Assembly: GCA_965195285.1 (NCBI GenBank)
Contig: CBDAFS010000060.1
Span: 1-36,472, forward strand
DNA length: 36,472 bases
Reading direction: 5' to 3'
DNA from: an uncultured Aminicenantes bacterium
GTDB lineage: Bacteria; Acidobacteriota; Aminicenantia; UBA2199
This document shows, one piece after another, positions 907-28,332 of this stretch. The notes beneath the pieces were generated by a model. The model did no database searches and was not told the origin of the DNA. It saw only the letters and a list, made by a program, of their open reading frames with translations. Positions within the stretch are counted from its first letter, which is position 1. Each line of letters starts with the position of its first letter. Position numbers and translations under genes: made by a program.

Positions 907-963
907 TTGAAATTTATTTAGGATTTTAATAAAATATATACTGATGTTTATTAATAGTTAGGG
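907..963 (+). promoter_or_regulatory. Sigma70-like promoter fused to an attI-like site (copy 1)
   Basis: TTGAAA(907-912)-N17-TAAAAT(930-935), then AATAGTTAGG. 47/56 identical without gaps to 28276-28331; shares AATAGTTAGG with the attI at 32533. Confidence 0.55.
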
Positions 964-975
964 GTTAGAGAAGTT

Positions 976-1030
976 GGGTTAGTCATCAAATTTTGATAGC
1001 AGATTGCACAATGATGACTGGCCCCATTTT
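976..1030. repeat. REP-like palindromic element, left copy of a direct repeat
   Basis: Internal inverted repeat GGGTTAGTCATCA / TGATGACTGGCCC. Aligns with 2015-2068 at about 41/55 positions. Confidence 0.6.
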
Positions 1031-1055
1031 TAACTGACCCGGTGTCTCGCTGTCA

Positions 1056-1988
1056 ATGAGATCGTTTAAGATAGCTAAGGTTTTCATCATCGTGTTCATA
1101 GGGTTGGGTCTCGCTTTCTGGCTTTGGCCTTCAATCCTAATCAGATCCGTATGGCTTGTGGCTTTCTGGACATCGCTCACCGCCTCATTGTGGGTGGCGC
1201 TGGCGTCGCTCCCGCATTTGTTTCTTGGCTACCTCACGATGCCGGCTTCACGAGGCACGGTTTTTAGACGCCTCGTTCTGGTCGATTTTGGGTCCGAAAG
1301 CAGCAGCACGAGACGGTTTATATCCTCGATACCTCTTAGTCTGATCTTTCTGGGAGTGGCATGGAGCGTCGGCTTGCTTACCTATGCTATCGTCCTAGTA
1401 GCTTTCTTTCTGTCTACCGAAATAAACTATTTGGTGGAACGATTAACGCCGCTGCTCGTGCTCTATCTCGGCTCGTCCGATCCGCATGACTCGCAACGCT
1501 CGTCATCCTTGATCGCTGCCACACTCTACCCCAGGCTAAGGCGCCTCGTGACCATTCTACGGCCTACTGAACGCAGTATCGCACCATCGTTCACTAGGTA
1601 TACCTCTTATCGAACCCACGATGATCTGTGGGTCACGATGTTAGACGAGCTACTGGAACTCACTCGAATTATAGTCATTGATCTTCGCACACCCACAGCG
1701 GCTCTTTCTTTTGAACTCAATAGAGTTTTGGAAAAACGCCTCGCCTACAAAACGCTGGTTCTGGTGGACTCCCGTCAAGTGGATAAGATTAAACCCGTCT
1801 TGAGTGAAATCACAGTAAATGGCGGCGTCTGCCTGACGGACTATAGTCTGCTGGTGAATCTCCTTTATATGTTTTGCAATCCACGAATGCGACTGCCGAC
1901 CTCCGGCTTAACGATGCACTCCCTTGTTGACGACATCCGCAGCGTGAATCCGAAAATCGAGATTCCAGTTTGGGATGATTCGGAGTAG
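1056..1988 (+). CDS. Foreign (GC-rich) membrane protein with a C-terminal Rossmann-like, possibly TIR/NDT-like, domain
   Basis: 310 aa with 3-4 N-terminal hydrophobic helices and the C-terminal motif W..MLDELL..T.IIVIDLR..T.AL.FEL. GC content is visibly higher than in the flanking DNA. Confidence 0.6.
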   Translation: MRSFKIAKVFIIVFIGLGLAFWLWPSILIRSVWLVAFWTSLTASLWVALASLPHLFLGYLTMPASRGTVFRRLVLVDFGSESSSTRRFISSIPLSLIFLGVAWSVGLLTYAIVLVAFFLSTEINYLVERLTPLLVLYLGSSDPHDSQRSSSLIAATLYPRLRRLVTILRPTERSIAPSFTRYTSYRTHDDLWVTMLDELLELTRIIVIDLRTPTAALSFELNRVLEKRLAYKTLVLVDSRQVDKIKPVLSEITVNGGVCLTDYSLLVNLLYMFCNPRMRLPTSGLTMHSLVDDIRSVNPKIEIPVWDDSE

Positions 1989-2014
1989 ACTATTACTCAT
2001 GACTTCCGGTAATA

Positions 2015-2068
2015 GGGTTATTTAGTAGTTTTTGACAGAAATTTGAATATTGATGACTGCCCCATTTT
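2015..2068. repeat. REP-like element, right copy of the direct repeat
   Basis: GGGTTA...TTTTGA...TGATGACTGCCCCATTTT, aligning with 976-1030. Confidence 0.6.
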
Positions 2069-2077
2069 ATGCTCAAC

Positions 2078-2201
2078 ACCTAATCAGACGCTGGAGTCGA
2101 TCCAACGCTCCATCTCTCCGCTCGAGGCGCAGTGGGAGTTCGCATACGCCGTTCATGATCAAGCTTGCGTGTCAGGCGGCGGGTGAGATCGGGCGTTAAA
2201 A
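2078..2201 (+). mobile_element. Degenerate long attC site (124 bp)
   Basis: ACCTAAT (AAC changed to AAT) followed by CAGACGCTGGAG, and ending GGTGAGATCGGGC-GTTAAAA; GC-rich internal arm. Confidence 0.6.
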
Positions 2202-2242
2202 TGTGAATGAAATATAGAAGAATGGAGGAAATAGGGAGATGT

Positions 2243-3601
2243 TTAGGGGATGTAGAACATTCTGAAATCCATGACATTGGTCCTGGTGGGTCCGGTCGTT
2301 AGCAGTTGATTGAGGCTTTTAAAAAACGCATATGAATTATTATTGTTGAGATGCATATCAATATCAAGTTTTTGTTTTTTTGTTTTTTTTATGGTTTTTT
2401 CAGTTATCCAGGCACCGGCTGCATCAGTGGGCCCATCGATACCATCAGTACCCATACTTAACACATAAAACGGATGTTCCATATGCTGCAGTTCTTTCAA
2501 CATTTGCAGTACAAATTCCTGATTTCGCCCTCCTTTCCCTTTTCCCCTGAGGGTCACGGTTGATTCCCCACCGCTAATAAGAAGCACGGGTGGTTTAAAG
2601 GGCTGTCCATTCTTAAAAATCTCCATCATTATTGACGCGTACAATTTGGCAATTTCAGTTGCATCTCCTTTATCTCTTGAGGTCAGGATATGGGTTTTTA
2701 TTCCCCTTTTCTCAGCGGATAGCTTGGCTGCCTTCAGAAAAACACCATTATCTCCCAGCAGAAAATGATGATTGTTCTTGAATTTATCCAGTTCGGGTAG
2801 TGGCGTGTCCTTTATTCTCCCCTTTCTTCCTTTTAGAAAATAATTTTTTAGTTCGGGTCCCAGCGTATTAATCAGATTATATTTTTGAAGAATGGCATAT
2901 GCATCGAAAAAAGATGTGGAATCTCCTATTGATGGTCCGGATCCGATATCTTCCAAAGGAGAATCAATGATATCGGAAAGTATCAGTGATATGATTTTCG
3001 CTGGAAATATTAATTCTGCTAGCCTTCCTCCCTTAAAAGCCGAGATATGCTTCCGGACACAGTTAATTTCCCTGATATTTGCAGAAGATGTTATCAATTT
3101 TTGGGTTAATTTGATTTTACCCTTAAAACTGATTTCTGGGCGAGGATATGAAAGTAATGCCGATGCCCCCCCTGTAATCAATACAAAAACCAGATCATTC
3201 TCTGAGACCTTGTTTTTCACATATCTGATCACTGCTTGACCGGCATGAAAATTTTGTTTGTCCGGAATCGGATGATTTCCAGGATAGCATTTTATTTTGT
3301 TGTCTGAAAATGCCTGGTATTCTGGCGATATGATGATACCTCCGTTTATATTCTTATTTAAGATTTTTTTTAGACCTTTGTGTAAAAAAGATACTCCTTT
3401 GCCGGCTCCGATAATATGAATTTTTTCATATTCCTTCAGATTAAAACGCTTTCCCTGGATTATCAATCGATTGTTTTTGAATTTGATCTGTTCCTGTATT
3501 AGCTTAGCAGGATCGACCGCTCCCAATCCCTCTTTTAAAATATGGTTTCCCAGGATTTTGAAATCACTGTATCTTTGGGGGGGTAATATCCTGTTGATCA
3601 T
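2243..3601 (-). CDS. Glycerate 2-kinase / hydroxypyruvate reductase family (DUF4147 + MOFRL)
   Basis: Motifs IGAGKG, HPIPD, LITGGASAL, RKHISAFKGGRLA, GGESTV, GKGGRNQE, GTDGIDGPTDAAG, TGPTRTNVMD. Confidence 0.92.
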   Translation of the reverse strand: MINRILPPQRYSDFKILGNHILKEGLGAVDPAKLIQEQIKFKNNRLIIQGKRFNLKEYEKIHIIGAGKGVSFLHKGLKKILNKNINGGIIISPEYQAFSDNKIKCYPGNHPIPDKQNFHAGQAVIRYVKNKVSENDLVFVLITGGASALLSYPRPEISFKGKIKLTQKLITSSANIREINCVRKHISAFKGGRLAELIFPAKIISLILSDIIDSPLEDIGSGPSIGDSTSFFDAYAILQKYNLINTLGPELKNYFLKGRKGRIKDTPLPELDKFKNNHHFLLGDNGVFLKAAKLSAEKRGIKTHILTSRDKGDATEIAKLYASIMMEIFKNGQPFKPPVLLISGGESTVTLRGKGKGGRNQEFVLQMLKELQHMEHPFYVLSMGTDGIDGPTDAAGAWITEKTIKKTKKQKLDIDMHLNNNNSYAFFKSLNQLLTTGPTRTNVMDFRMFYIP

Positions 3602-4115
3602 TGTATTTTCCCTTTAGTTCTTTGTAGGAGAAAAGGGGAAGGGCATTGCTCTCTAAAAAAATCACCTGAGCGATTCCCTGCATGGGAAAAAGAAGAACGG
3701 GTTTTCCGGAAATATTGGATATGGATATGGTCAAAAAACCATTCCATTCCGGTTCCAGCGGAGTCACATTGATTAAAATTCCGCTTCTGGCATAAGTTGA
3801 TTTCCCCAGCACGAGTCCCATCACTTTTTTAGGGATTTTAAAAAACTCCAAACTTCTTCCCAGAATATAGGATCCGGTTTCCAGAATGATTTGGTCTTCG
3901 GTGAAGGTGTCATAATGACTTTCACTCATATTATGTGGATTGATCTGTTGGATATTGGTTTTTATTTTTTTATAAGTATTGTGCAGGCGAATATCGTAAC
4001 CATAGGGACCCAGGCCATACGAAATGACTCCCTCTCTCACTGAATAGGGTAAAAAGGGATTCAGCAACTGGTGTTCTTCAGCTTGGGTTTTTATCCAGGT
4101 TGAAGATTTCAACAT
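3564..4115 (-). CDS. dcd: dCTP deaminase
   Basis: Motifs ISYGLGPYGYDIRL, GKSTYARSGI, VTPLEPEWNG, GIAQVIF and KY.DQ. Confidence 0.93.
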   Translation of the reverse strand: MLKSSTWIKTQAEEHQLLNPFLPYSVREGVISYGLGPYGYDIRLHNTYKKIKTNIQQINPHNMSESHYDTFTEDQIILETGSYILGRSLEFFKIPKKVMGLVLGKSTYARSGILINVTPLEPEWNGFLTISISNISGKPVLLFPMQGIAQVIFLESNALPLFSYKELKGKYNDQQDITPPKIQ

Positions 4116-5011
4116 TTGCTAATCGGAAAGCCTGAGATTCTCAAATGCATATGGGTGGATAACTTTCTCAGATACAAAATACCATTTTTTAAATCCTTGG
4201 AAAACTTGGTTAGGTATTTGGCAAAACCGATTTCCTTGTTCATTCTTAATTTGTTTTCGAATTCGATGTTCAATTCCCGTAATTCGATCATTAAATTTTG
4301 CAAATATAAAATGTTATCCAAGGTTTCAATTAATTTCACAGTGGAAATATCACTTATTTTGGTCTCAGGAGTCATCTTAATCCTGTCTATTGAATCAGAT
4401 ACCATTTCCTTTACCGAGTAATCAATTTCGTTCAGGTAGGGTTTTTTATAGTCTTTATAATATCTCAATTTGTGCTTGGCGCGTTCTTGGATTTTTTTGT
4501 TCTGTTCAATGAAAGAAAGGTAAAAACTTTTCAACCCGAGGTATTTTTTTTCAAACTGAAGTATATTGATGAAATCACGGCCGATATATATTTTGTCGCT
4601 ATATGAGTTTTGCAATTCATCTTCATAGTGGGAATAAAATTTTAATTCAAATTTACCATCCCCATGGGGAATCACCCTGGTAATGGTAATATTCTGGGGA
4701 TCTGTAATATAATATGTGTTTTCTTCGATAATGGCACTGTAAATGAATAGTGAATTGATAATGAAATTTTTTAATGAATCAAAAAACGAATTATGTTGAG
4801 ATAGGAAGTCTCTGAATTCAGCCGGGGGTTCACCGATTAACGATATATATAACGGTGAAAACAGGTATTTCTCTTTATCAGAAACGAATTCAAAGTAAAA
4901 ATTATTCAGTACTTTTTTATATAGATTTGAATATTTTATTGCCGGGAAATTTGTCAGGGGGTTATCACTGTATTCCTTGAAATAGGTTTGAAGCTCCACA
5001 TTATTCTCCAT
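4109..5011 (-). CDS. Hypothetical protein (helical C-terminus), co-oriented with and overlapping dcd
   Basis: Long ORF overlapping the dcd start. ATG at 5011 (MENNVELQ) preferred over the upstream TTG at 5050. Confidence 0.7.
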   Translation of the reverse strand: MENNVELQTYFKEYSDNPLTNFPAIKYSNLYKKVLNNFYFEFVSDKEKYLFSPLYISLIGEPPAEFRDFLSQHNSFFDSLKNFIINSLFIYSAIIEENTYYITDPQNITITRVIPHGDGKFELKFYSHYEDELQNSYSDKIYIGRDFINILQFEKKYLGLKSFYLSFIEQNKKIQERAKHKLRYYKDYKKPYLNEIDYSVKEMVSDSIDRIKMTPETKISDISTVKLIETLDNILYLQNLMIELRELNIEFENKLRMNKEIGFAKYLTKFSKDLKNGILYLRKLSTHMHLRISGFPISKC

Positions 5012-5157
5012 TAAAATTATATTGTAAAAATATTCAAATGTAAATATCAAATTTTAAAATTCCAACCTGATTGTTGAATCTACCGGGCGGGTATTTTATA
5101 TTAATATCTGGTCAAATGGCTTTACTTTGTTATATTTTTTTGTTAATTGATACATAG

Positions 5158-6243
5158 ATGAAAAAAATAAAACCGTTGATTTCAGCTCCTTTGATGGCTT
5201 TAATTTTATATTTTTTCATCATTTTATTCATTATCTTGAGTTTAAAAAACTTCACCCTTCTCGCGGCGCCTGTTTTTTTTGCCCTGGTCATTGCATATTT
5301 ATTCAATCCATTGGTCAGTTTTTTGGAAAAACGGACACCTTTATCCCGTCCCCTTATCTCAGCCCTTTTAATGTGTGTTTTGGTGTTGGCATTTTCGTTT
5401 TTGGTGGGAATTTTATTGCCGGATTTCATTGACAGAATAAAGAACGCAGCTGTGAAAATACCTCAATTGTTAAAACAGTTTGCAGAAAAAGTTGAGGTTG
5501 TCAGTAATTATTTAACCAAAAATTTTTCAGAATATATTGGAAATGTTGATATAAGGGGGAGTATCGAGACCACCACAAGCAAAATTCTTTATAATTTTTC
5601 AGATTTGCTGATAAAAGGTTTTTCCAGTCTTTATGGTGTGTTTTTTATTATGGCTTTTCTCTTTTTAACCCCTCTTTTTTCATATTATTTTCTTAAAGAT
5701 TACTATAAAATAAAGAAAAGTTTATTTGAATTGGTGCCGGTTCGGGTTTCCAAAAAATTTTTAAAAAAAACCGAAAATATGAACCGGATATTATCGTCAT
5801 TTATCAGGGGTCAGGCTATTGTTGTTGTAATTCTGGCTGTTTTGTACTCTATTGGATTGAGTTTAATTGGATTGCCCTTTCCGATTTTAATCGGGATCCT
5901 TTCAGGCATCGGAGATATTATCCCCTATCTTGGAACCATAGTGGGTTTTATTATTTCTCTTATAATAGGAATTGCCTATTTTCAATCGATCGAAAAATTG
6001 TTATTGGTGGTACTGGTTTTTGCGGTGGTTAAAGGGAGCGAAAACTGGTTTTTCTACCCCAAAATAGTGGGAAAAGAAGTGGGCCTTCATTTTGTTTGGG
6101 TTTTGGTATCCATTATCCTTTTTGGTCGCTTATTTGGTTTTTGGGGGTTATTGATTGCCATTCCGGCTTCTGCCGGATTTAAGGTTTTCATTACAGATTT
6201 GGTCGATTACTATAAAAAGTCCTCTTATTTTAAAAAAAAATGA
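5158..6243 (+). CDS. AI-2E family transporter (PerM/TqsA-like)
   Basis: Multiple TM helices; motifs AYLFNPLV, YYFLKD, FIRGQ, IPYLG, PKIVG..VGLH, GLLIAIP. Confidence 0.9.
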   Translation: MKKIKPLISAPLMALILYFFIILFIILSLKNFTLLAAPVFFALVIAYLFNPLVSFLEKRTPLSRPLISALLMCVLVLAFSFLVGILLPDFIDRIKNAAVKIPQLLKQFAEKVEVVSNYLTKNFSEYIGNVDIRGSIETTTSKILYNFSDLLIKGFSSLYGVFFIMAFLFLTPLFSYYFLKDYYKIKKSLFELVPVRVSKKFLKKTENMNRILSSFIRGQAIVVVILAVLYSIGLSLIGLPFPILIGILSGIGDIIPYLGTIVGFIISLIIGIAYFQSIEKLLLVVLVFAVVKGSENWFFYPKIVGKEVGLHFVWVLVSIILFGRLFGFWGLLIAIPASAGFKVFITDLVDYYKKSSYFKKK

Positions 6244-7553
6244 AGAACATTATTATTTTTTTTGTGATTTTCCTGACATCTATCGCTTTGCCCGCTCAAA
6301 AAACCAAAAATGAAAATCAAAGTACATTTATCATTCAACCTGATTTGAATAAACTGAATTTGGATGAGAAGTCAAAAAAAATCGCTCAAGTATTTTTTGA
6401 GATTTCTGGCCTATGTGATCAAATAAACCGAAATAGTAAAACACCTGAAGACCGGGAGAAAGTTTTGTTGGAGATCACCCGATTGTTGAATAGTGCTGTT
6501 GAAATAGAATCCGACTCAAAAAATAAGATCTATTTATCTGCTCTGGCCGAAGATATTTTAAAAAATGATTTTGGCTCCAGTTATTCAAACTGGCTGAATA
6601 TGGAAAACTCCAAAATTGATATTCTTTATCAAACAGACAAATCAAAAAAGTTGACTGTATCTGTTTTGGCGTATGATCATAAATTAACTCAAAAGGCCGG
6701 ACGTTACAGCTCGCTTATTGATAAAATGAAAGCAAATACCACACGGAAGTATTATTCGATTTCATCATCCACATCATTCAGATATCCCTTTCTTATTGCT
6801 GATCTGCTTCAAACTACAGGTACAGGCCGGAGCGTTCTGACTTATCCTCCAATCCAAAAAGCAGGCAAGCAAGATCAGATAAAAATTATTATTCTTCGGA
6901 ATGTGGCCAGATATTTTTTCAAAGAAATTTTAAGACCTGTGGCTGAAAAGGCCTTTCCTTCACGGTTGGCCAAATTGGTTGATTTTAAAAGTTATTTTTC
7001 AAATATTATCATGCATAAAATTGCCCATTTTTTAGGCCCATATTTTACCAAATCAAAATCCGAAGAGCCCGAATTGATTAGAAAAAAATTGAAAGACTTA
7101 TTTTTATGCATTGAGGAAATTAAGGCTGATACGGTTGCTCTAAGCAATACGTCTTTATTGATCAAAGAAAAAATTTTGTCCAAGCAGAAGGAAAATCGGG
7201 TTTATGCGACTTATATTACCCATTTGCTGGCAAAGGTCAGGCAAAATAAGAATCTTGTGGAAAAAGACCCGTATTTGGTTCAAATCAATTATTTCCTGAA
7301 GAATCAGGGATTGATTTTTAGCCTGGGAAACCAGGAATTGTTAATCAATTTTGACAGGCTTAAGCGTGAGATTAGAAAATTAATGGATATGGTTTTAAGG
7401 ATTGAGCAAAGCGGCAATTATCCCAGTGCAAAACAATTTGTAAAAAATTATTCGGTGATACCTCAGGAATTGAAACAGATTTTAAAAAAAATGGAAAGTA
7501 TTCCTGTTGAAATAAAGATCAAAACCACCAGAGAAAAGAATCAATTAAGCTGA
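6240..7553 (+). CDS. Secreted peptidase M49 (DPP III / Nudix-hydrolase-3-like) homologue, probably catalytically impaired
   Basis: Signal peptide; NIIMHKIAHFLGP in place of HExxHGLGP, and CIEEIKAD matching EExKAD. Confidence 0.7.
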   Translation: MKNIIIFFVIFLTSIALPAQKTKNENQSTFIIQPDLNKLNLDEKSKKIAQVFFEISGLCDQINRNSKTPEDREKVLLEITRLLNSAVEIESDSKNKIYLSALAEDILKNDFGSSYSNWLNMENSKIDILYQTDKSKKLTVSVLAYDHKLTQKAGRYSSLIDKMKANTTRKYYSISSSTSFRYPFLIADLLQTTGTGRSVLTYPPIQKAGKQDQIKIIILRNVARYFFKEILRPVAEKAFPSRLAKLVDFKSYFSNIIMHKIAHFLGPYFTKSKSEEPELIRKKLKDLFLCIEEIKADTVALSNTSLLIKEKILSKQKENRVYATYITHLLAKVRQNKNLVEKDPYLVQINYFLKNQGLIFSLGNQELLINFDRLKREIRKLMDMVLRIEQSGNYPSAKQFVKNYSVIPQELKQILKKMESIPVEIKIKTTREKNQLS

Positions 7554-7647
7554 TTGCCGAGGAGTAAGCAATGTCTGAACCTATCGATGCCAGTGTCAAT
7601 CAGAGATTTTCGTCTTCGGATTAAAATCTGAATTGAGGTTTTATTAT

Positions 7648-9633
7648 ATGATTCACCAAGTTTCCTACAATTTTAAACTGGATGTATTTCAACAGAAGGC
7701 AATTGAAGCGGTTGAAAATGATTGCTCCATTGTTGTATCAGCGCCTACCGGATCAGGAAAAACCGTTATAGCCGAGTATGTGATTAAGAAATGTTTGAAT
7801 CAAGGATACGGAGTTATCTATACGGCCCCTATAAAAGCACTGTCCAATCAAAAATTCAGGGAATTTAAAATGTTGTTTCCGGATCAGGTGGGAATCATTA
7901 CCGGTGATGTCAGTATTAATCCATCGGCACCGTTTTTAATCATGACAACTGAAATTTTTCGTAATCGAATTCTTGAGAACGATTCCAGTTTTGCCAAACA
8001 TTCATGGATTATTTTTGATGAAATTCATTATCTCGATGACATTGAGAGGGGGACCGTATGGGAAGAGTCACTGATTTTCTTACCTAATCATATGCGTTTT
8101 GTAGGCCTCTCCGCAACAATTCCCAATTTAACTGAGTTTTGTTCATGGTTAAAGGAAATTCATCGGAATGAGATTACTATGATAAAGGAAGAGAATCGAC
8201 CCGTACCGCTTCATCATTATTTTCAATGTAGAGGGAAAATCCTCAACAATCTTTTTACCGTTAAGCGAGTTGCCTACACAGGAAAAAGAAGCTTTCATCA
8301 TGGAAGGAATTATGGAATCTCAAATTCCCGTTATTTAAAAAATTCTTCTCAATCAAATAAACCGGAACGTTTGATGACCCATCTTTTAAAATCTGACCAG
8401 CTCCCCTGTATTTATTTTGCCTTTAGTCGAAAGCGCTGTGAATTTTTGGCTTTACGAGCACTTGATTTCGATTTTATCACCCTTGATGAAAAAACGGTAG
8501 TCCTGAAAACTTTTGATACTTTATGTCTGCAGTTGGGAATAGAGGCCTCGGAACGTGCTCAGACCCTGAGAAAATGTGTTGAGAAGGGTGTTGCCTATCA
8601 TCATGCCGGATTGCATCCCTTGCTCAAGGAGGTGATTGAACAGCTTTTCTCCAGAAGGTTGATTAAATTAATCTTTACGACCGAAACGTTTGCCCTGGGA
8701 ATTAATATGCCGGCCCGAACCGTTGTCCTTGATGATTTAAAAAAGAAGTATGGCCGTTTTTATCGTCACTTGAAGAGGCGTGATTTTTCACAGATGGCGG
8801 GCAGATCCGGGAGAAGGGGAATTGATAAAGAGGGATTTGTCTACAGCCGGATCAATCCTGATGAGTTGTCTTTCCAGGAATTGAAACAGATTTATACCGG
8901 TTACCCGGAACCCATCTTAAGCCGGTTCAATATTTCCTATGCAACCATTTTGAGTTTGTATGAAATTTACGGTGATCAACTCATTGATATTTATCCCCGT
9001 TCATTTCATTTTTTTCAGCAAAAAAATAAAAAACGCAGCAATCAGCTCGAACAGATAAAATCAAGGTTGAAAATACTCAAACAATTGGAATATATAAAAA
9101 ATAATGAATTAACTGAGAAAGGGTTGTTTGCCAAAAAAATATATGGCTATGAACTTCCGCTTTCGGAATTGTTCGGATCGGGGTTGCTGGAAACTTTTAC
9201 TGCCCCACAATTGGCCATGATTTGCTTGTCCATGGTTTATGAACCTCGCCCCAGGAGAAGATTTCCCAAGGGGAGCAGAGAAGTAAAAAACATGAGGTCC
9301 ATAACCAACCAAATATCCAAACATATTAACCTTATTGAAACCAGATTCAGGATTACCCCGCTTAGCAAAAAATGGTATTATGACTTGGTTCCTTCGCTTG
9401 TCTTATGGATAGATAACAAATCCTTTGATGAAATCATGACCTTTGCAGACCACGATGAAGGGGAAGTTATTCGGTTTTATCGCATGTGCCTTCAAATTTT
9501 GCGTGAGATCAAGGATGCACCTATACCGGCCAACTTTGAATGTAAGGTTGATGAGGCTATTGAAATGATAAATAGGGGAGTTATCGATGCGGCACAGCAA
9601 TTGAAGCAAGTCTCTACAATGGATGAAGCATAA
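7648..9633 (+). CDS. helY: Ski2/HelY-like DExH RNA helicase
   Basis: Motifs APTGSGKT, YTAPIKALSNQK, MTTEIFRN, DEIH, LSAT, HHAG, TETFALGINMPAR, QMAGRSGRRG, and a DSHCT-like C-terminus (DEGEVIR). ATG 7648 follows GAGG. Confidence 0.88.
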   Translation: MIHQVSYNFKLDVFQQKAIEAVENDCSIVVSAPTGSGKTVIAEYVIKKCLNQGYGVIYTAPIKALSNQKFREFKMLFPDQVGIITGDVSINPSAPFLIMTTEIFRNRILENDSSFAKHSWIIFDEIHYLDDIERGTVWEESLIFLPNHMRFVGLSATIPNLTEFCSWLKEIHRNEITMIKEENRPVPLHHYFQCRGKILNNLFTVKRVAYTGKRSFHHGRNYGISNSRYLKNSSQSNKPERLMTHLLKSDQLPCIYFAFSRKRCEFLALRALDFDFITLDEKTVVLKTFDTLCLQLGIEASERAQTLRKCVEKGVAYHHAGLHPLLKEVIEQLFSRRLIKLIFTTETFALGINMPARTVVLDDLKKKYGRFYRHLKRRDFSQMAGRSGRRGIDKEGFVYSRINPDELSFQELKQIYTGYPEPILSRFNISYATILSLYEIYGDQLIDIYPRSFHFFQQKNKKRSNQLEQIKSRLKILKQLEYIKNNELTEKGLFAKKIYGYELPLSELFGSGLLETFTAPQLAMICLSMVYEPRPRRRFPKGSREVKNMRSITNQISKHINLIETRFRITPLSKKWYYDLVPSLVLWIDNKSFDEIMTFADHDEGEVIRFYRMCLQILREIKDAPIPANFECKVDEAIEMINRGVIDAAQQLKQVSTMDEA

Positions 9634-9690
9634 AGACCCGTTTTTTTTGGTTGGAGTTTATGGTAAAATAAAAAGAAAACCGGACTGGAG

Positions 9691-10836: not shown

Positions 10837-10899
10837 CATTATCAACAGTACTTGATCCTAAATGTATTTCATTTATCGATTCGAGTTTTACTTCTTCCC

Positions 10900-10928
10900 T
10901 TGACAAAGTGAGCGATTTGAAATATAAA
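10900..10928 (+). promoter_or_regulatory. Sigma70 promoter for the tRNA-Leu / purN / recG run
   Basis: TTGACA(10900-10905)-N17-TATAAA(10923-10928). Confidence 0.6.
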
Positions 10929-10959
10929 TAAAAGCTGTTGGTCTGTTTTATTACCTCAA

Positions 10960-11043
10960 GCCGAAGTGGTGGAATTGGTAGACACGCAGGTTTCAGGTAC
11001 CTGTGGGAGTAATCCTGTGGGGGTTCGAGTCCCCCCTTCGGCA
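10960..11043 (+). tRNA. tRNA-Leu (anticodon CAG), CCA not encoded
   Basis: Acceptor stem GCCGAAG/CTTCGGC, D loop with GG, anticodon arm CAGGT-TTCAGGT-ACCTG (CAG at 10994-10996), long variable arm, T loop TTCGAGT. Confidence 0.96.
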
Positions 11044-11050
11044 TTTTAAT

Positions 11051-11659
11051 ATGAATAAGGGAAAAGTTGCCATTTTTTTATCCGGGAGGGGTTCAAATTT
11101 CGAGGCGATATATCAATCATCTCAACATCCTGGGGCCAATTTTGAGATTGCCGTGGTTATCAGTGATAAAAAAGATGCCCCGGGTTTGGAAAGAGCAAAA
11201 GAATTTGGTTTACCGGCTCACCTGGTATTGCCCGAATTGTTTAATTCGAAAGAAGAATATGAAAAGCATCTGGTTAAACTCTTAAGGGAAATGGATGTAG
11301 ATTTGGTATGCCTGGCCGGGTATATGAGAATTGTCGGTGAAGACTTGTTGAAGGCCTTTGAAAACCGGATTATGAACATCCATCCTGCGCTTCTCCCCTC
11401 ATTCCCTGGATTACATGCTCAGAAGCAGGCCTTTGATTATGGGGTTAAAATCAGTGGTTGTACGGTTCATTTTATTGATTCCGGAGTTGATACCGGTCCA
11501 ATTCTTCTGCAACAGCCGGTGGAAGTCCTCGAAGATGATAATGAGGAGACATTGAGTAATCGAATTTTAGCCGTAGAGCATAAAATATATTCCCAGGCTA
11601 TCCGATTATTTTTTGAAAATCGTTTGAAGCTTAGGGAAAGAAGGGTTATAATATCTTGA
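11051..11659 (+). CDS. purN: Phosphoribosylglycinamide formyltransferase
   Basis: Motifs SGRGSNF, LAGYMRI, NIHPALLPSFPG, GCTVHF..GVDTGPI, EH. The real start is ATG 11051; the ORF-track start lies inside the tRNA. Confidence 0.96.
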   Translation: MNKGKVAIFLSGRGSNFEAIYQSSQHPGANFEIAVVISDKKDAPGLERAKEFGLPAHLVLPELFNSKEEYEKHLVKLLREMDVDLVCLAGYMRIVGEDLLKAFENRIMNIHPALLPSFPGLHAQKQAFDYGVKISGCTVHFIDSGVDTGPILLQQPVEVLEDDNEETLSNRILAVEHKIYSQAIRLFFENRLKLRERRVIIS

Positions 11660-12216: not shown

Positions 12217-12225
12217 TTAATCCTT

Positions 12226-15467: not shown

Positions 15468-15495
15468 TTTTTCATTTTATGGATTTTGTTCTGTT

Positions 15496-19916: not shown

Positions 19917-19924
19917 TAAATCAT

Positions 19925-20833: not shown

Positions 20834-21597
20834 TGAAGCTTTGGGCAATTGCTGTTAACACTTTTAAAGAAGCGGTTCGGAATAAAATTTTTTATTTGTT
20901 ACTGGTATTTGGAATTATTTTTGCCCTTAGTTCCCGATTGGTTGGCCTATTAACTCTTGGTGATTCCACAAAAGTTTTGAAGAATGTCGGATTGGCGTCT
21001 ATTAATTTTTTCAGCGTTTTGATCGCTATTTTTACTGGCATAAATCTTATATACAAAGAGCTTGATAAAAAAACCATATATAATATCCTCAGTAAACCCA
21101 TTTCCAGATCCGATTTTATCATTGGAAAATTTTTAGGGCTGGCCTATACGATTCTGGTTGCCTTGGTTTCCATGGGAATTGTTTTCTTCGTATTTCTGTT
21201 TATCTCAACCGGAGAGTTTGATTGGCGAATTCTTATTTACTTTGGCCTGTTGTATTTGGAGCTGTTAATCATCACTTCAATTTCACTGGTTTTTTCGTCT
21301 TTTTCCACACCAATTCTCTCTTCAATCTTTACCATCATCATTTATTTGGTGGGTCATGTCTTATGGACGTTTAATGAGTTTAAACACAAGTTGGTGGAGC
21401 CTGTTTTCAAGGTGATTGTTCATTTCTTTTATTATATTCTTCCCAATCTGGAAAAGTTCAATCTAAGGGATCAGATTGTTATGAATATGAAAATCGACAT
21501 GAAAATTGTATTTGTTTCCGTTATTTATGGAATTCTATATATTGCAGCTTTACTCATACTGGCAATTTTAATATTTAACAAAAGAGAATTTAAATAA
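20833..21597 (+). CDS. ABC-2 permease (PilI-like)
   Basis: IA.NTFKEAVR, KE.DKKTIY.ILSKPISR..FIIGKF; about six TM segments. Confidence 0.85.
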   Translation: MKLWAIAVNTFKEAVRNKIFYLLLVFGIIFALSSRLVGLLTLGDSTKVLKNVGLASINFFSVLIAIFTGINLIYKELDKKTIYNILSKPISRSDFIIGKFLGLAYTILVALVSMGIVFFVFLFISTGEFDWRILIYFGLLYLELLIITSISLVFSSFSTPILSSIFTIIIYLVGHVLWTFNEFKHKLVEPVFKVIVHFFYYILPNLEKFNLRDQIVMNMKIDMKIVFVSVIYGILYIAALLILAILIFNKREFK

Positions 21598-22439
21598 TGA
21601 GTCAAAAGTGGTGGTTTGTATTTGTAGTGCTGATCATTTTATCGGGATTTTTACAATTTAGTTATGATACCCGGATTGAGTATTTTGCGGAAAAGGAGAC
21701 ATTTATTTCACTTCCCTCCGGTAACACCTTGAAGATTTTATCATTTGGAAATTCAAATTTTGTGGCCGATATGTTGTTTATCTGGTCTGTTCAGTTTTAT
21801 TCAACCTTGAATCTTACCAACCGGTTTGACTATATTGAGGATGTTTTCAATGTGATTACCGATTTGAATACGCAATATAGATCAGCTTATTATTATGGAG
21901 CCATTATAATGGCTTTGGAAGCCAGGGAATATAAGATGGCTATCAGATTGCTGCAGAAGGGATCCCGACATATGAACCACGAATGGATTTTTGATTATGA
22001 ATCGGGTTATTATGCCTATAAGTTTCTTAAGGATTATAAGTTGGCTGAATCGTATTATTTGAAGGCCAGTCAGAATCCGGATGCGCCCTCTTTATTAAAA
22101 AGAAGGAGGGCACACATGGTTTATATCAGAGATGATTTAGCCCTGGCCCATGAACTGTGGACAGAAATATACGAGCATGCCAAAACCCAGTTGGAGAAGG
22201 ATGCTGCCATATTCCATCTCTATCAGATTAAATTTGAATTGGATAAAAGGCTATTGGAACAGAAAATTCAGTTATATAAAGCGAGGTATGGTCGAAATCC
22301 AATAGATTTGGATGAGCTGAAACGGGTGGGTTTTATAGATAAAATACCCATCGATTTTCATGGTAATGACTATATATATGATATCAAAAAAGGGAAAATA
22401 ATGGCAAAGAGGATTTACAGATGGAAGAAATCTCATTAA
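21597..22439 (+). CDS. Membrane-anchored TPR-like protein (PilG-like)
   Basis: N-terminal TM helix, ADML...VQ, ITDL...Y, helical repeats, and a C-terminal GRNP.DL.EL...G...IP.D..G..Y motif. Confidence 0.65.
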   Translation: MSQKWWFVFVVLIILSGFLQFSYDTRIEYFAEKETFISLPSGNTLKILSFGNSNFVADMLFIWSVQFYSTLNLTNRFDYIEDVFNVITDLNTQYRSAYYYGAIIMALEAREYKMAIRLLQKGSRHMNHEWIFDYESGYYAYKFLKDYKLAESYYLKASQNPDAPSLLKRRRAHMVYIRDDLALAHELWTEIYEHAKTQLEKDAAIFHLYQIKFELDKRLLEQKIQLYKARYGRNPIDLDELKRVGFIDKIPIDFHGNDYIYDIKKGKIMAKRIYRWKKSH

Positions 22440-23185
22440 TATTACTGGGCTTAATCATCGGTAGTTTTTTAAATGTTGTTATTTTCAGGTTACCCCTGGA
22501 AAAAAGTATTGTTACACCCGGATCATACTGCCCCCGCTGTAAAACACATATAAAATTTTACGACAATATCCCGGTTCTGAGTTTTATTTTTTTAAAGGGA
22601 AAATGCAGAAGCTGTAAAAATAAAATACCTATTCAATACCCGATGATCGAAATTCTGACTGCTTTCAGTTTCTGGTTTACCTTCAAAACTTTTGGCTATT
22701 CCCCGATTTATACCGGCTTTACGATTGTTTTTATTTGTCTGCTTATTGCCTTGGCATTGATCGATTTAAAGCATATGATACTTCCGAATGAACTCACTCT
22801 CGGGGGGGGGCTGGTGTTTCTGGTTTTCTCCTTTTTTAATCCTGAAATTACTTATTGGGATGCATTTGCCTCTGCTTTTGGGTCAGCCTTAATTTTTGCC
22901 GGTTTGTATTTCTTCTATTTAAAGGTCAGGAAAATAGAAGGCCTTGGATTTGGGGATGTTAAAATGATGATCCTGCTGGGGGCCTTCCTGGGTTTGAAGA
23001 AATTGGTCATCGCTGTATTAATCAGTTCTCTTTCTGGTCTGCTGGTGGGCATCCTTATTATTATCTTCAAGAAAAAGAATTTAAGATTTCAGCTGCCTTT
23101 TGGTACTTTTCTCGGTTTTGGGAGTTATGTTTCAATATTTTGGGGAGAGGAAATTTTAACATTTTTACATTCCCTTTACCGGTAA
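22421..23185 (+). CDS. pilD: Prepilin peptidase / N-methyltransferase
   Basis: GSFLNVVIFRLP, CPRC...CRSC, DNIP, ALID, GLGFGDVKM, LPFG.FL. Confidence 0.95.
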   Translation: MEEISLILLGLIIGSFLNVVIFRLPLEKSIVTPGSYCPRCKTHIKFYDNIPVLSFIFLKGKCRSCKNKIPIQYPMIEILTAFSFWFTFKTFGYSPIYTGFTIVFICLLIALALIDLKHMILPNELTLGGGLVFLVFSFFNPEITYWDAFASAFGSALIFAGLYFFYLKVRKIEGLGFGDVKMMILLGAFLGLKKLVIAVLISSLSGLLVGILIIIFKKKNLRFQLPFGTFLGFGSYVSIFWGEEILTFLHSLYR

Positions 23186-23217
23186 TATGATTGGGAATCA
23201 TTCAGGGGAGTAATACC

Positions 23218-24540
23218 ATGAAAAAGTACGTTATAGTCATTTTAATCATTGTTCAATTGCTACTATTGTTCTTCTTTCAAAATCTCTATTTTTTATTCAA
23301 GGAACTGGAGGCAGTTGATTTAAATGATATGAAAGCCAAGGTTGAATTGGTGGATCATATCGGTCAAATGAAGAAAATATTCTCACTGTTTTCAATCTTA
23401 ATCGGACTGTTTTTAATTGCCTCTGGAATATATCTGGGTTACCTATTTAAAAAGTCCAAGGATGAGATAAAATTTAAAGATGTTTCTCCGCTTCAGACTT
23501 ATCTGCAAGAACTGAGAAACAGTGAAATTGAATTGAAAGGTATAGTTGAGAAGCAGCAGGAAAAAGTCAGTGGAAAGGAAGAGTTGAGCAGAAGTATTAT
23601 CAATAATATAAATGCAGCTATCATATTTTTAAATCAATTCAATCGGATTGATATCTTCAATGTCAATGCAGAAAAAATGTTTAACCAGAGTTATGTCAAT
23701 GCCAGAAATAATAACCTGGAAAATGTGTTGCGCCCATTCCCGGAGCTGATAAGCTTTCTAAATGCCAACCCGGGAAAAAAAGTATATTCTGACATTGAAT
23801 CTTCAGGAAAGATATTCCGTCTGGATTTAATTCCCATGAAGAAAACGGGAACATTGATCATCATTAGAGATGTTACTGAAGACAAACAACGCGAGGAAAT
23901 TGACAGAAGAAATAAAAATTTCATCATGCTGGGAGAGATGACCGCTTATCTGACCCATGAAATGAGAAATTCTTTGGGAGCTATTTACGGTTATGCCAAA
24001 GCGCTTCAATCTGAACTGAAAAATACGGGCACACAGAAGATTGCCCATAAGGTCAATAAAGTAAATCAGGAAATTGAGCTTTTGACCGCTTCCATGGAAA
24101 GTTTCCTTAATTTTTCAAAACCCATTTCTGTGGAAGTGAAAAAGGAAATTAATATTATTGAGTTGATAAAAAAAATCGGGCAAGAGAATAAGATAAAAAT
24201 CAATCTTCCCCGGACAGAGGTTATTTTAAAGTGCGATCCCGTATTGATCAATTCGATTTTTTTCAACCTGGTTTTAAATGCCAAAGAAGCAAAAGCAGAC
24301 CGGATTGATATTGTCTTTGAAAACCAAGAACCTATGGAAATTCTTTTTAAAGATAATGGCCAGGGCATGAAATCTGAAATCCATGAAAAAATATGGTTGC
24401 CTCTGTTCACCACCAAGGAAAAGGGTACCGGAATGGGTCTGGCTATCGTTAGAAAGATTGTTAATTCGCTTCAGGGAGATATTTGCTTGATTGAATCAAC
24501 ACCAAAAGGCACAACTTATAAAATTGTTTTATTTCCCTGA
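23218..24540 (+). CDS. Membrane PAS-domain sensor histidine kinase (PilS-like)
   Basis: Two TM helices, PAS domain, LGEMTAYLTHEMRN, NLVLNA, DNGQG, FTTKEKGTGMGL. ATG 23218 follows GGGGAG. Confidence 0.88.
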   Translation: MKKYVIVILIIVQLLLLFFFQNLYFLFKELEAVDLNDMKAKVELVDHIGQMKKIFSLFSILIGLFLIASGIYLGYLFKKSKDEIKFKDVSPLQTYLQELRNSEIELKGIVEKQQEKVSGKEELSRSIINNINAAIIFLNQFNRIDIFNVNAEKMFNQSYVNARNNNLENVLRPFPELISFLNANPGKKVYSDIESSGKIFRLDLIPMKKTGTLIIIRDVTEDKQREEIDRRNKNFIMLGEMTAYLTHEMRNSLGAIYGYAKALQSELKNTGTQKIAHKVNKVNQEIELLTASMESFLNFSKPISVEVKKEINIIELIKKIGQENKIKINLPRTEVILKCDPVLINSIFFNLVLNAKEAKADRIDIVFENQEPMEILFKDNGQGMKSEIHEKIWLPLFTTKEKGTGMGLAIVRKIVNSLQGDICLIESTPKGTTYKIVLFP

Positions 24541-24599
24541 ATCCCAGACTTGAACCCGGTTTTTGTTGCTGACCCACAGAAGAACTGTTTTCATTGTGG

Positions 24600-27500
24600 T
24601 CAGGAACGGTCTTCCGGAACCAATTGATTTTTTCCGGTCATTTTCATAGAGTAAATGGTTGAGATACCCGGTTCATTCATGGTTATTCCATAAATATAAT
24701 CAGCTTCTTCCATGGTTTTAAAGTTATGGGTAATAATGAGAAATTGGGTTCTTTCTTTTAGTTTGTGTACGAATGTCAAAAACCTCTGAACATTTGCTTC
24801 ATCCAATGAGGCATCAACTTCATCAAAAACACAGAATGGCGACGGTTTGTATTCAAACAAAGCAAAAAGAAATGCCAGGGAGGTCAGTGCTTTTTCTCCT
24901 CCCGAAAGCAAACGCAGGCTCTGCAGTCTTTTCCCGGGTGGCTGGGCCTTGATTTCCAGTCCGGTTTCCGTGATGTTGTCTGCATCGGTGAGCATCAGTT
25001 CTGCCTCCCCACCTTCAAATAGTATCTGAAAGTTTTTCTGGTAGTTTTTCGTTATTTCCTTAAATGCTTCTAAAAAAGAAATCTGGGACTCTTCATCGAT
25101 CTTTTTTATGGCATTGTTCATATCCGTAATTGATTTTTCTATGTCTTCTTTTTGAGATAGCAGAAAATGATGATCTTTGGAAAGGATTTCGTACTCGGAT
25201 TCAGCTGAAAAATTAAGGCGATCACTATCTCTCATTTTAATCATTCTATCATTGGAAGTTTGGTATTGGGTTTCCAGAGCTGAAACATCCATGTGTTGTA
25301 GACCTTCTTGCTCATCAATCTGATCCAATTCGGTATTTAATTCTTTAAAAGCAGAATCTTGCAATTGGAAAATGTCTTTCTTGATGGATGAAAAATCAAT
25401 TTCCATTTTGCTTTTATTCTCTTTTATTTCGTCCAGGGTTTTTCGTTTTTGTTTCAGATCAGCCGTAATGGCTTTCAGTTCTTCATTGACGTTTTCAAAT
25501 TCCTGATCAAGATTTTTGGTTTGTTTTTCCATTGTGTCTTTATTCAGGTTTAGATTCCGGGTGTCTTTTTCAATATTTTTGATCTTTTGATCGGTTTCTG
25601 ATAATTCCTTTTCCAGTTTTGAGATTTCCTTCAAATTGAGGTTGTTTTGATTTGAGAGTTTGAGTTTATTTGCCTCCAATTCCCTTAATTTGGTCCGGGT
25701 AGAGGTCAGTTTTTCGTTTAATAGATTGATCCGGCTGTCTTTTTGCAGAACGTTTTTTTCCTTTTGATTGACATCTCCCTCTAACTCTTGAACATTTGCC
25801 TCAAATTCTTTTTGTTTCTTCTCCAATGTTTGATATTCTTTTTCATGAAGTGCGCGCTGCTTTTTTGATTTTTGCAGTTCATTATGATTTTTCTCTTTTT
25901 CAAGGGCAAGTAATTCCAATTCTGATTCATTAAGCTTTACACGGTTCAAATAGGTGCCTCTATTTTTTTTCACTTCATTCAGCTTGGCATCGACTTGGAT
26001 ATATTTTTCCTTTAAGTTACTCAGGCTATTTTTTTCCTTTTCTACTGTTTCTTTGAGATCCTGATATTTTATTTGCTCCTGTTTCAGACTTTGACCTGAG
26101 ACTTGCAGTCTTTTCTCCAATTCCGTTTTTTTGATGTTGATTTTTTTGATCTCATCTATGACATTCAGAATGCCTTTTCCTCTCTTTCTTATTATTAAAC
26201 CATCTTTGTTAATGATTTCGGCATTTTGGGTTACCACATCAACGGCATACTTTTTAAAAATCTTTATACCATTTTGGATATTATCGACCAGGATTCCTTT
26301 TTTCAGGAATGGTTCGACTTTCTTGTTCCGGAGAACAACTAAATTTGTTACATAGGCCTGAAATCCAGTTTCTTTTTCAATTTCCCGGGGAATGAGCGGA
26401 TTGCCTTGTCTGGTTATTAGAAATTTGTTGGCCTTTTTTTGGGAAATATCCTTTTCTTCTGTCAACATGATGGCATCCAATTCTTCATAATAGAGGTTTT
26501 CGATAATGTCGTGATATTCTTTTTTTACCTCAATGGAATCCTGGAGCAATTCATTATTCCGGGAATCAATGGATTCGTTTTCAAAACCCATAATTTTTTT
26601 CTTTATTTCCCCATACTTTTGTTGCTGATTTCCCAAACCGATTATCTCATTTTCCAGGTTCCTCAGTTCCGTTTCCAGTTTTTCAATTTTTTCTGCATAC
26701 CTTATCTCGGCTTCCTCTTTGGTTTTGTATTGAAACTCCCCTTTCTCGATTTCTTCTGTCAACTTTTCTATTTCATTTTGAATCTGCCGAATTTCCAGCT
26801 CATTGATTTGTTTATGCAATTCATTGATAAAGTTTTTTTTGCTGTCCATTTCATTTTGAATACGATTGATCTTACTTTCCATATCCAAAATTTTGTTTTG
26901 GCTAAGAGCCTTTTTTCCTTGAATATTAAATATCTCTGCTTTAATATCTGATAAATGGGCTTTCAATCCAACAATTTTTTGCTGCACATGGGATAAGTCA
27001 GATTTATTTTTTTCATTAATAGATGCTTCGTTTTGCATTTGCACCTGTAATTCATTCGTTTTCTGGTTCTCGGTTTCAACCCACCTGGTTAAGTTTTGAA
27101 TTTCGAGTTTGTTGGATTCAATTGTTTCCTTTTTTTCCTTTATTTTTTGCCGGTTAAAGTCATTTTGTTGTTGAAATTTTTCAACTTCACTATTATTCGA
27201 AAATATATTGCGGTTTGTGCTGAAGGTATTCTGTTGATTCTGCTTTAGATCTTTATCTGTCTGCCACAGTTTCTCTTCCAATTGAATGTCCTTTTTTTCC
27301 AAGACTGAAATTTCTTTTACTTGAATGGCCTCTTGATTGATTAATTTCTCGATTTCAGATTTTAAAACATCAAAATCCTTCTGAAAAACCAGATGTTTTC
27401 TTTTCAGCAGTGCCTGGAGAAAGCTATTTCTTTCCTTTTTAAGATGTCGGAAACGGCTTACATAATTAACCTGATTTTTCAGTTCTCTTAATCTGCCATC

Positions 27501-28079
27501 CTTATCCGTGATGAGGATTCCTATATTTTCCAGGTTTTGTTCGGCAATAATCAATTTATTGGTGGTTTCTTTCTTTCTTTCCAGATACTGTGATATTCCG
27601 GCAGCTTCTTCAATCAGCAGTCTTTTTTCACTGGGTTTCAATGATATGAGTCGGTCAATGCTTCCCTGTTCAAATATGAAGTATTTTCTCTCTCCCAATT
27701 GCATTTGAAATAGTGCATTCTGGATATCTTTATTTCGGCAATATTTTTCATTTAAAATATATTTACTCTCTCCGGATCTAAAATATCTTCGGGCAAAATA
27801 GAGTTGCTCTCCATGATTCATGAAATAAGAGCCCACTTCAGTCATCCCCAGGGGTTTTTTTGAATGACTTCCATTGAAAATCAAATCTTCGTTATTTTCT
27901 CCTCTCAGGTTTTTAATACGCTGTTCTCCCAGCACCCAGAGAATGGCATCAACAATATTGCTTTTTCCACAGCCGTTGGGGCCCACAACAGCCGTAATGC
28001 CTTTGTGAAATTTTAATACGGTTTTATCAGGGAATGATTTAAAACCATGCAATTCAAGTTTATCGAGATAAATGTCCAT
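24600..28079 (-). CDS. smc: Chromosome partition protein SMC
   Basis: GFKSF, VGPNGCGKSN, long coiled coils, PPGK, LSGGEK, FDEVDASLD, ITH. Confidence 0.95.
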   Translation of the reverse strand: MDIYLDKLELHGFKSFPDKTVLKFHKGITAVVGPNGCGKSNIVDAILWVLGEQRIKNLRGENNEDLIFNGSHSKKPLGMTEVGSYFMNHGEQLYFARRYFRSGESKYILNEKYCRNKDIQNALFQMQLGERKYFIFEQGSIDRLISLKPSEKRLLIEEAAGISQYLERKKETTNKLIIAEQNLENIGILITDKDGRLRELKNQVNYVSRFRHLKKERNSFLQALLKRKHLVFQKDFDVLKSEIEKLINQEAIQVKEISVLEKKDIQLEEKLWQTDKDLKQNQQNTFSTNRNIFSNNSEVEKFQQQNDFNRQKIKEKKETIESNKLEIQNLTRWVETENQKTNELQVQMQNEASINEKNKSDLSHVQQKIVGLKAHLSDIKAEIFNIQGKKALSQNKILDMESKINRIQNEMDSKKNFINELHKQINELEIRQIQNEIEKLTEEIEKGEFQYKTKEEAEIRYAEKIEKLETELRNLENEIIGLGNQQQKYGEIKKKIMGFENESIDSRNNELLQDSIEVKKEYHDIIENLYYEELDAIMLTEEKDISQKKANKFLITRQGNPLIPREIEKETGFQAYVTNLVVLRNKKVEPFLKKGILVDNIQNGIKIFKKYAVDVVTQNAEIINKDGLIIRKRGKGILNVIDEIKKINIKKTELEKRLQVSGQSLKQEQIKYQDLKETVEKEKNSLSNLKEKYIQVDAKLNEVKKNRGTYLNRVKLNESELELLALEKEKNHNELQKSKKQRALHEKEYQTLEKKQKEFEANVQELEGDVNQKEKNVLQKDSRINLLNEKLTSTRTKLRELEANKLKLSNQNNLNLKEISKLEKELSETDQKIKNIEKDTRNLNLNKDTMEKQTKNLDQEFENVNEELKAITADLKQKRKTLDEIKENKSKMEIDFSSIKKDIFQLQDSAFKELNTELDQIDEQEGLQHMDVSALETQYQTSNDRMIKMRDSDRLNFSAESEYEILSKDHHFLLSQKEDIEKSITDMNNAIKKIDEESQISFLEAFKEITKNYQKNFQILFEGGEAELMLTDADNITETGLEIKAQPPGKRLQSLRLLSGGEKALTSLAFLFALFEYKPSPFCVFDEVDASLDEANVQRFLTFVHKLKERTQFLIITHNFKTMEEADYIYGITMNEPGISTIYSMKMTGKNQLVPEDRS

Positions 28080-28275
28080 CAGTGTTATGATTAACCCGCT
28101 TTATTTTTATGTTTTTACAAAAAAATGATAAAAATTTATTCTATAAAATACCACAATTCAATAGAATTGTAAATCAGGTTTTTTCTGATAGTTTATATTA
28201 ATCAAACTCATCCCAATTATTATAAAAATTTGAATATTTCATATCACCTTGTTTGGTTGAAAAGCGATCAATTTT

Positions 28276-28332
28276 TTGAAATTTATTCTTTATTTTAATA
28301 AAATACATACTGAAATATATAAATAGTTAGGC
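28276..28332 (+). promoter_or_regulatory. Sigma70-like promoter fused to an attI-like site (copy 2)
   Basis: TTGAAA(28276-28281)-N17-TAAAAT(28299-28304), then AATA-GTTAGGC (GTTAGGC at 28326-28332). 47/56 identical to 907-962. Confidence 0.55.

Follow-up and report, generated by a model that had tools for sequence, protein, structure and literature searches.

Integrons are usually described as one integrase, one attI site, one promoter and one array, and isolated cassettes as strays at loosely defined sites. Clusters of attC sites lacking an integron integrase (CALINs) are defined by their attCs alone, a conserved promoter or entry site at the head forming no part of the definition. For single attC sites lacking an integron integrase (SALINs), the attG preprint reports that cassettes insert at GWT sites across the genome, that there are hot spots, with 18 nt as the minimum, and that cassettes near resident promoters are expressed (10.1101/2022.09.11.507474). 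GTTRRRY secondary sites are described in a further study (PMC10127599), and another deals with attI-gene-attI and delta-attI cassettes in class 1/2 integrons, functional ones being reported in class 1 (PMC12901181). Here we analyse a 36,472-nt stretch of DNA (the window) from an uncultured sediment bacterium, Candidatus Aminicenantes, and a 56-bp sequence that it carries twice. The window is the entire contig C60 of a 62-contig, 3.28 Mb metagenome-assembled genome (MAG) that is 94.9% complete (G000); bare positions refer to the window, and contig names to G000 unless another genome is prefixed.

The 56-mer is the core of a double-stranded 65-70 bp module (module M) that heads accessory genes in this Aminicenantes genus. 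In our reading, to which we give a probability of roughly 0.55, such integrase-less promoter/attI-like modules served as cassette entry points, with the joint at GTT and most likely via an integron integrase. Judged from sequence, M is like the integron platform, that is, cassette promoter (Pc) and attI, in being a duplex site about 65 bp long, with a putative G↓TT crossover at its right-hand extreme (the arrow marks the joint) and a predicted promoter reading into co-oriented, attC-ended cassettes; a second family of sites, family I, includes the one beside an intI remnant. Unlike that platform, 12 M copies and three to four solo family-I copies lie here without intI, M is not significantly similar to the intI-linked site outside 11 nt, and most M copies head genes without an attC. 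Putative mobile promoters, a concept that includes neither integron cassettes nor a fixed recombination point, are near-identical promoters upstream of unrelated genes in one genome, as M is. Like CALINs, the left array of the window (contig C13 with 211-281 and 2100-2201) consists of clustered attCs and has no intI, and the same is true of the arrays that follow M in G002:C166. With SALINs and attG the locus shares single attC cassettes far from an integrase, joined at GWT and expressible from a resident promoter; attG sites, as the preprint describes them, are scattered and have only a short motif in common, whereas the receiving sites here are two repeated families of 65-130 bp. Genes between attI-type sites have a counterpart in the module-gene-module tandems of C40 and C56, but the attI-gene-attI cassettes of that study lie within mobile integrons with a working IntI1. 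What seems to be new relative to integron and SALIN descriptions is that one conserved 65-bp family, and likewise the attI family, is used repeatedly, with the joint at the same nucleotide in different loci and genomes; literature searches on Aminicenantes integrons and attI-like sites, in a coverage that excluded most subscription journals and supplements, gave no description of dispersed promoter/attI modules.

The two window copies (907-962 and 28276-28331) are identical at 47/56 positions without gaps, as the initial annotation had it. A repeat search extends the match to 65 nt at 80%, and the family profile recovers copy 1 at E=1.7e-13 and copy 2 at E=3.7e-11 in the 3.28 Mb genome; the resemblance is not chance. 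Both copies also bear the TTGAAA-N17-TAAAAT described there (907-935, 28276-28304), with 10/12 matches to the sigma-70 consensus, a match that is weak by itself because a sigma-70 scan gives 6 sites per region where shuffled sequence gives about 3.5. The 10-mer AATAGTTAGG occurs three times, all on the + strand, at 953, 28322 and 32529, with the G of GTT at the positions listed in Table 1; shuffles average 0.07 occurrences and 0/100 reach three. The third (32529-32538) ends the intI-linked attI, again as first stated. No intI lies beside either copy, and smc (24600-28079, minus strand) is divergent from copy 2; here too the earlier description was accurate.

That each copy is followed by foreign cargo and then an attC holds in part. 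Copy 2 has a clear attC and copy 1 a probable one, and the cargo 1 stretch has a GC content of 48.6% against 36.7% for the contig, whereas cargo 2, at 37.7%, is not distinct from it. The R'' box ACCTAAC proposed for the second attC is indeed at 31495-31501; the ACCTAAT proposed for the first lies at 2078-2084, and the R'' that pairs is ATCCAAC at 2100-2106. The 3' arm of this first attC resembles those of other attCs, and its end falls 41 nt short of the stop codon of a convergent MOFRL gene. Covariance model and fold inspection found no attC between the genes of cargo 2.

Beyond the window, M is a dispersed family. A fuzzy search followed by a profile finds 12 copies in G000 at E<=1.2e-8, spread over nine contigs, and a weak thirteenth, and R3, a sequence model built on 26 module M copies, gives the same 12. 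The unit consists of a short AT-rich lead-in, TTGAWA, 17 nt, TAAAAT and then ATATACTGATGTTTATTAATAGTTAGG, with the TAATAG↓TTAGG core 21 nt after TAAAAT; its best-conserved part runs from -10 to +26, and shortened copies retain only the portion from -10 onwards. As expected of a sigma-70-type promoter, it has -35 and -10 boxes at 17-nt spacing upstream of a co-oriented gene, and the start of a co-oriented open reading frame (ORF) lies 19-128 nt downstream in 12/12 copies. The ORFs are mutually unrelated: an Asp/Glu racemase, a DUF5698/DUF2179 protein, a zinc-dependent alcohol dehydrogenase, an RRM RNA-binding protein, an SMC-like ATPase, a SMODS fragment, a methyltransferase and others. An alignment of the 26 copies yields no consensus secondary structure and the modules have no attC covariance-model match; the lack of a consensus structure fits a duplex site and not an attC. 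At least one M copy is present in 15/72 genomes of a family-level comparison set, with 12 in G000, 3-6 in each of its three congeners (G001, G002, G003) and 1-2 in other genera. Exact-pattern scans of public records added eight stretches in species genomes and four in metagenome records; L051, L053, L054 and L057 below are four metagenome contigs with module M.

Behind the M copy on C15 follows a 65-aa ORF (C15:27934-28131; 5935-6132 on the minus strand of L018) that matches the first 65 of 164 positions of SMODS, the cyclase of cyclic-oligonucleotide-based antiphage signalling systems (CBASS), and appears to be a truncated defence gene.

The G↓TT junctions were placed by comparing loci between genomes and contigs and noting where the sequences part. 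The module adjoins smc in G000, G002 (C166) and G001 (C29), each with its own cargo, and similarity ends after A(G/A)TTAG. At C56, the upstream gene and the module are 89-97% identical between G000 and G003:C147, and the two sequences part after AATAGTTAGGC. In L051 and L053 a methyltransferase gene stands directly behind the module, at AATAG↓TTATGTGGAG and AATAG↓TTATGTGG. In L054 the module reads AATAG↓TTAAAAAC and is followed by a 205-aa ORF and a weak attC (18.8 bits) ending AAACG↓TTATGTG, and only then by the same methyltransferase. The spacing from GTT to start codon is constant at 29-32 nt and both joints are at G↓TT, the pattern expected from attC x GTT recombination. Together with the SerC-like locus of family I described below, these loci place the predicted cassette junction, as in an attI, at the G↓TT within a GTTRRRY-like core that closes the site on the right; an adjoining, divergent intI, another mark of an attI, is not found with M. 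In metagenome contigs from runs X6 and X11 (one study), the leader of an RRM cassette is preceded by sequence like the 3' end of another attC, with no module, and the break lies within 13 nt of GTT.

Cargo ending in an attC follows 4/12 M copies in G000: the two window copies (2100-2201, by fold only, and 31495-31567), C56:2364-2437 and C2:2344-2416. The covariance models used, R1 and R2, are home-made from the window's own sites and the sites these recovered; a structural scanner based on folds constrained by AAC...GTT got a2 and a4, missed five known attCs, matched coding regions and was dropped. Over the whole genome R2 gives 15 matches at E<=5. Eight fall in two arrays, the intI-linked one (33219, 34730, 35764) and the left one (C13 and 211-281); of the seven others, three lie behind M, two behind family I, one on C6 (183 nt from the contig end) and one on C42 (E=4.9). 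Single attC cassettes with no intI or other att site nearby, joined at GTT, occur at C56:2364-2437, C2:2344-2416 and C40:58388-58459. In congeners, G002:C220, G002:C246 and G002:C166 have module, cargo and attC in this order, and an RRM gene with an attC stands behind M in G000 and G003 (G003:C121), the G002 contig stopping before the position of the attC. Across relatives an attC lies near 4/28 M copies, all in the window's genus, with several contigs ending too early to tell; the metagenome contig L057 has a module, a 158-aa ORF and an attC of 28.2 bits.

The RRM locus also varies on either side of the cassette. The 2.2 kb 5' of its module (C2:2905-5086, L017) is missing in a contig from run X7 (joint 2904->5091) and in G003:C121, and a further stretch of about 690 nt after the attC is missing in G003.

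The intI remnant and the attI linked to it supply the second family. The remnant lacks about 200 aa and matches TIGR02249 at 98.3 bits (cut-off 265) over model positions 254-315 only. Among the M and family-I copies, the attI at 32409-32538 is the only one that adjoins intI, here a remnant, and it is divergent from it; no TIGR02249 match adjoins any of the 12 M copies. M and family I have a common layout and the last 11 nt in common, the 11-mer TAATAGTTAGG at the end of M being the end of the intI-linked attI. Family I repeats on C27 (81% over 126 nt), C35 (84% over 103 nt), C40 (86% over 80 nt) and weakly on C57 (E=0.011), with no intI match nearby. The C40 copy is divergent to an Aminotran_5 (SerC-like) gene and precedes a HigB/HTH_3 (higBA) pair and an attC of 29.8 bits; in G003:C59 the same Aminotran_5 gene and the same family-I site (93%) stand before a kinase-like ORF, and homology breaks at AATAG↓TTA. 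The G000 DNA after the attC differs from the kinase-like gene of G003, so the two genomes do not form a clean empty/occupied pair. Behind the weak C57 copy come an 89-aa ORF and a site resembling an attC, at 26 bits. Solo copies of the intI-linked attI with a cassette go beyond what the initial annotation had seen and support the part of its reading that concerned solo sites.

These comparisons suggest the following course. The terminal GTT of M would be a repeated joining point for attC-bearing cassettes; an integron integrase would most likely recombine attC with the attI-like core of M; and a promoterless cassette would thereby end up 40-120 nt behind a ready-made promoter. We infer IntI catalysis, specific recognition of the module and promoter activity; several M copies appear to act as extra landing-and-expression sites. 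M and family I both exist without an integrase, so the promoter and insertion site that make up the platform half of an integron occur many times without one, and since the integrase is a deletion remnant in the assembly, the cassettes would be products of past or externally supplied activity.

The view that the copies are solo Pc-attI pads of a distributed integron is thus partly supported: a dispersed, integrase-less, promoter-like module exists, 4/12 copies have attC cargo, the cargo varies and junctions fall at G↓TT, while 8/12 have no detectable attC and M does not duplicate the intI-linked attI. The accompanying suggestion of an integrase elsewhere acting in trans is not supported by the 94.9%-complete assembly, which has no intact intI and only the internally deleted remnant. 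A fuller version, in which M and I (at least 15 copies) would be true substrates of one dispensable or horizontally supplied integrase serving many chromosomal platforms, the segment from -10 to +26 would hold accessory integrase-binding sites, and module-gene-module tandems would be attI-bounded cassettes spreading the platform, is tentative, and we consider it improbable as a whole.

Several observations weigh against entry through an integron integrase. No intI reaches the TIGR02249 cut-off in G000, where sub-cut-off matches lie at C60:32019-32204, C7, C58, C3, C43:50851 and C50, and none is found at E<=1e-30 in the three congeners. In the four same-family genomes of other genera that have an intact intI, M is not near it, which says little because M is rare there. 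The M profile finds the intI-linked attI at best with E=15, in the core only and not significantly, so a common origin of the two families is not established. The remaining 8/12 M copies show no attC in the loci scanned with filters off, nor by eye after the first ORFs, and 14 M copies of other genera have no attC match within +/-1.5 kb; among the genomes, the attC-ended cargo that the initial annotation anticipated was seen behind part of the G000 copies and, in relatives, within the window's genus. R1 and R2 miss the sites at 2100-2201 and 33990-34108, both known by fold alone, so calls of no attC are not firm. The attC of L054 is weak at 18.8 bits. Extra upstream DNA common to several M copies, together with the tandems, implies that the module moves or duplicates by a route beyond IntI, and copy 1, between the attCs at 211-281 and 2100-2201, could be the inside of a large cassette. 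Every genome is a MAG in which many contigs stop inside regions of interest, and the relatives are few and not mutually independent.

One alternative is that M is an ordinary lineage-specific promoter or operator of a small regulon, and that the cassettes are off-target, attG-type insertions kept by selection behind a strong promoter, without special recognition of the module. Its distribution in 15/72 family genomes, mostly at 1-2 copies, would suit such a regulon, as would the lack of attCs outside the window's genus, the 8/12 G000 copies without an attC, a conservation peak from -10 to +26 like that of an operator or leader, and the insertions at GWT sites reported in the attG preprint. A regulon promoter, however, would not by itself account for every placeable junction falling on the same GTT of a 65-bp family and not anywhere in the 5' leader, for an 11-nt core identical to that of a true attI, or for 5/7 non-array R2 attCs lying behind M or family I among all the promoters of 3.3 Mb. 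We regard it as unlikely.

We consider less probable still that the module travels with its gene, promoter-gene units having spread by module x module recombination (homologous or site-specific) or inside large two-attC cassettes, so that nearness to attCs would merely reflect life in arrays. This would explain the tandem copies at four loci, C40 (935 bp apart), C56 (3087 and 524), G002:C220 and G001:C29, the duplicated 3' end of the upstream gene at both C56 copies, the recurrence of 633-777 with the module at two other G002 loci, and the position of copy 1 between two attCs; the attI-gene-attI and delta-attI cassettes reported in class 1 integrons would be a precedent. Against it, the C56 and serC loci keep upstream DNA and module or attI between genomes and break at GTT, L054 differs from L051 and L053 by an insertion downstream of the module, and the RRM cassette occurs without the module in other populations. 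Simple decay, each copy being the leftover of a complete integron after deletion of intI, is highly improbable: the window does hold a decayed intI, and flanking-gene remnants show repeated rearrangement, but a separate deletion with its end just 5' of the promoter would be required for every one of the 12 M and three to four solo family-I copies, M is beside intI in 0/4 intI-bearing relatives, where the initial annotation had expected decay to show itself, and G000 and G003 have the same solo family-I copy by the Aminotran_5 gene.

Two further identities for M were considered. The Acidobacteria-type LexA operator consensus is a GTTC-N7-GTTC direct repeat, and we rejected M as a LexA (SOS) operator because its GTTT-N7-GTTA is only loosely like the GAAC-N7-GAAC of the G000 lexA promoter and no M precedes lexA or recA. 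In that promoter (C15:33590-33640), GAAC-N7-GAAC lies between TATAAT and the start codon, and we take it to be the direct-repeat SOS box of Acidobacteria and Alphaproteobacteria. For M as the end of an insertion sequence or a miniature inverted-repeat transposable element, the copy contexts viewed, with no formal search made, show no adjoining transposase and no inverted partner.

Should entry at the module through an integron integrase be correct, one uncultured sediment lineage would have multiplied the insertion-and-expression half of the integron apart from the integrase, with defence, toxin-antitoxin and metabolism cassettes at the same nucleotide. If the modules are integrase substrates, array heads could be searched for by sequence and not by attCs alone, and the arrangement would bear on how SALINs and CALINs arise and on the number of cassettes that one cell can express simultaneously. 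M, family I and their natural variants would make a test set for attI recognition outside Proteobacteria.

Table 1. Features of the window around the two module M copies, the cassette arrays and the intI remnant.
Feature	Position	Strand	Details
attC of left array	211..281	+	array continues to the left on contig C13, with 4 further attCs there
Remnant of second MOFRL gene, last ~17 codons	527..585	-	527-575 90% identical to 2242-2290
Shared stretch upstream of copy 1	633..777	+	recurs just 5' of M copies at G002:C220 and G002:C166
Module M copy 1	895..963	+	-35 TTGAAA 907-912, -10 TAAAAT 930-935, core TAATAG↓TTAGG with G at 957; R3 60.5 bits
Cargo 1	964..2099	+	310-aa ORF 1056-1988, without Pfam match
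Probable attC after copy 1	2100..2201	+	R'' ATCCAAC (2100-2106), R' GTTAAAA; fold -17.5 kcal/mol with AAC/GTT paired
Module M copy 2	28264..28333	+	-35 28276-28281, -10 28299-28304, G of GTT at 28326
Cargo 2	28334..31494	+	methyltransferase 28448-29110; 432-aa ORF 29250-30548 without Pfam match; N-formylglutamate amidohydrolase (FGase) family 30581-31396
attC closing cargo 2	31495..31567	+	R'' ACCTAAC (31495-31501), R' GTTAAAG; 76.6 bits R1, 62.7 bits R2
GcpE/IspG gene, C-terminal remnant	31622..31855	-	Pfam positions 284-342 of 343; between attC 31495-31567 and intI remnant
intI remnant	32019..32371	-	~57 N-terminal aa from 32371 downward, followed after a frame shift by the C-terminal box-II part (32219-32019); ~200 aa missing
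intI-linked promoter/attI (family I)	32409..32538	+	TTGGTT 32474-32479, N17, TATAAT 32497-32502, 30 nt, GTAGAGTAATAG↓TTAGG, G at 32533
Cassette array behind intI-linked attI	32539..35824	+	attCs 33219-33297, ~33990-34108 (fold only), 34730-34786, 35764-35824

Further features were noted around the copies. The window opens with 123 bases that match the start of C13 exactly in reverse complement; the four attCs of C13 lie on that strand, so that the left end of the window forms the tail of an attC array, at least 24 kb long, in which no integrase was seen. The 3' end of the MOFRL/DUF4147 gene (2243-3601) is also present as an orphan 1.7 kb off, beyond copy 1 and its cassette (90% over 49 nt); the duplicated end suggests a scar left when recombination introduced 586-2241. 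The GcpE/IspG fragment is another stump of a housekeeping gene at the edge of an array. On C56 (461-3100, L011) two M copies 2.5 kb apart are each accompanied by a copy of the 3' end of one upstream gene, and between them lie a 182-aa ORF with an attC and an AbiEi/AbiEii pair. In congeners the flanks of the C40 tandem locus are on other contigs or divergent.

The stretch of about 145 nt upstream of copy 1 (633-777; L035 2377-2519; L038 3453-3597) is 71-78% identical among its three loci. It resembles the degraded 3' end of a small ORF and includes a short, GC-rich motif like a hairpin; Rfam gives no match to it at gathering thresholds. Applied at these thresholds to the window and three related loci, Rfam matched neither the modules nor the shared upstream stretch and returned one tRNA only. 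This tRNA gene (RF00005, 55.5 bits) lies at 10960-11043 on the + strand and overlaps the start of a purN-like ORF (11003-11659 in the mechanical listing). The record CAZOWT010000029.1, our G001:C29, is titled 'uncultured Clostridia bacterium'; its genome groups with Aminicenantes MAGs, and the title is probably a labelling issue.

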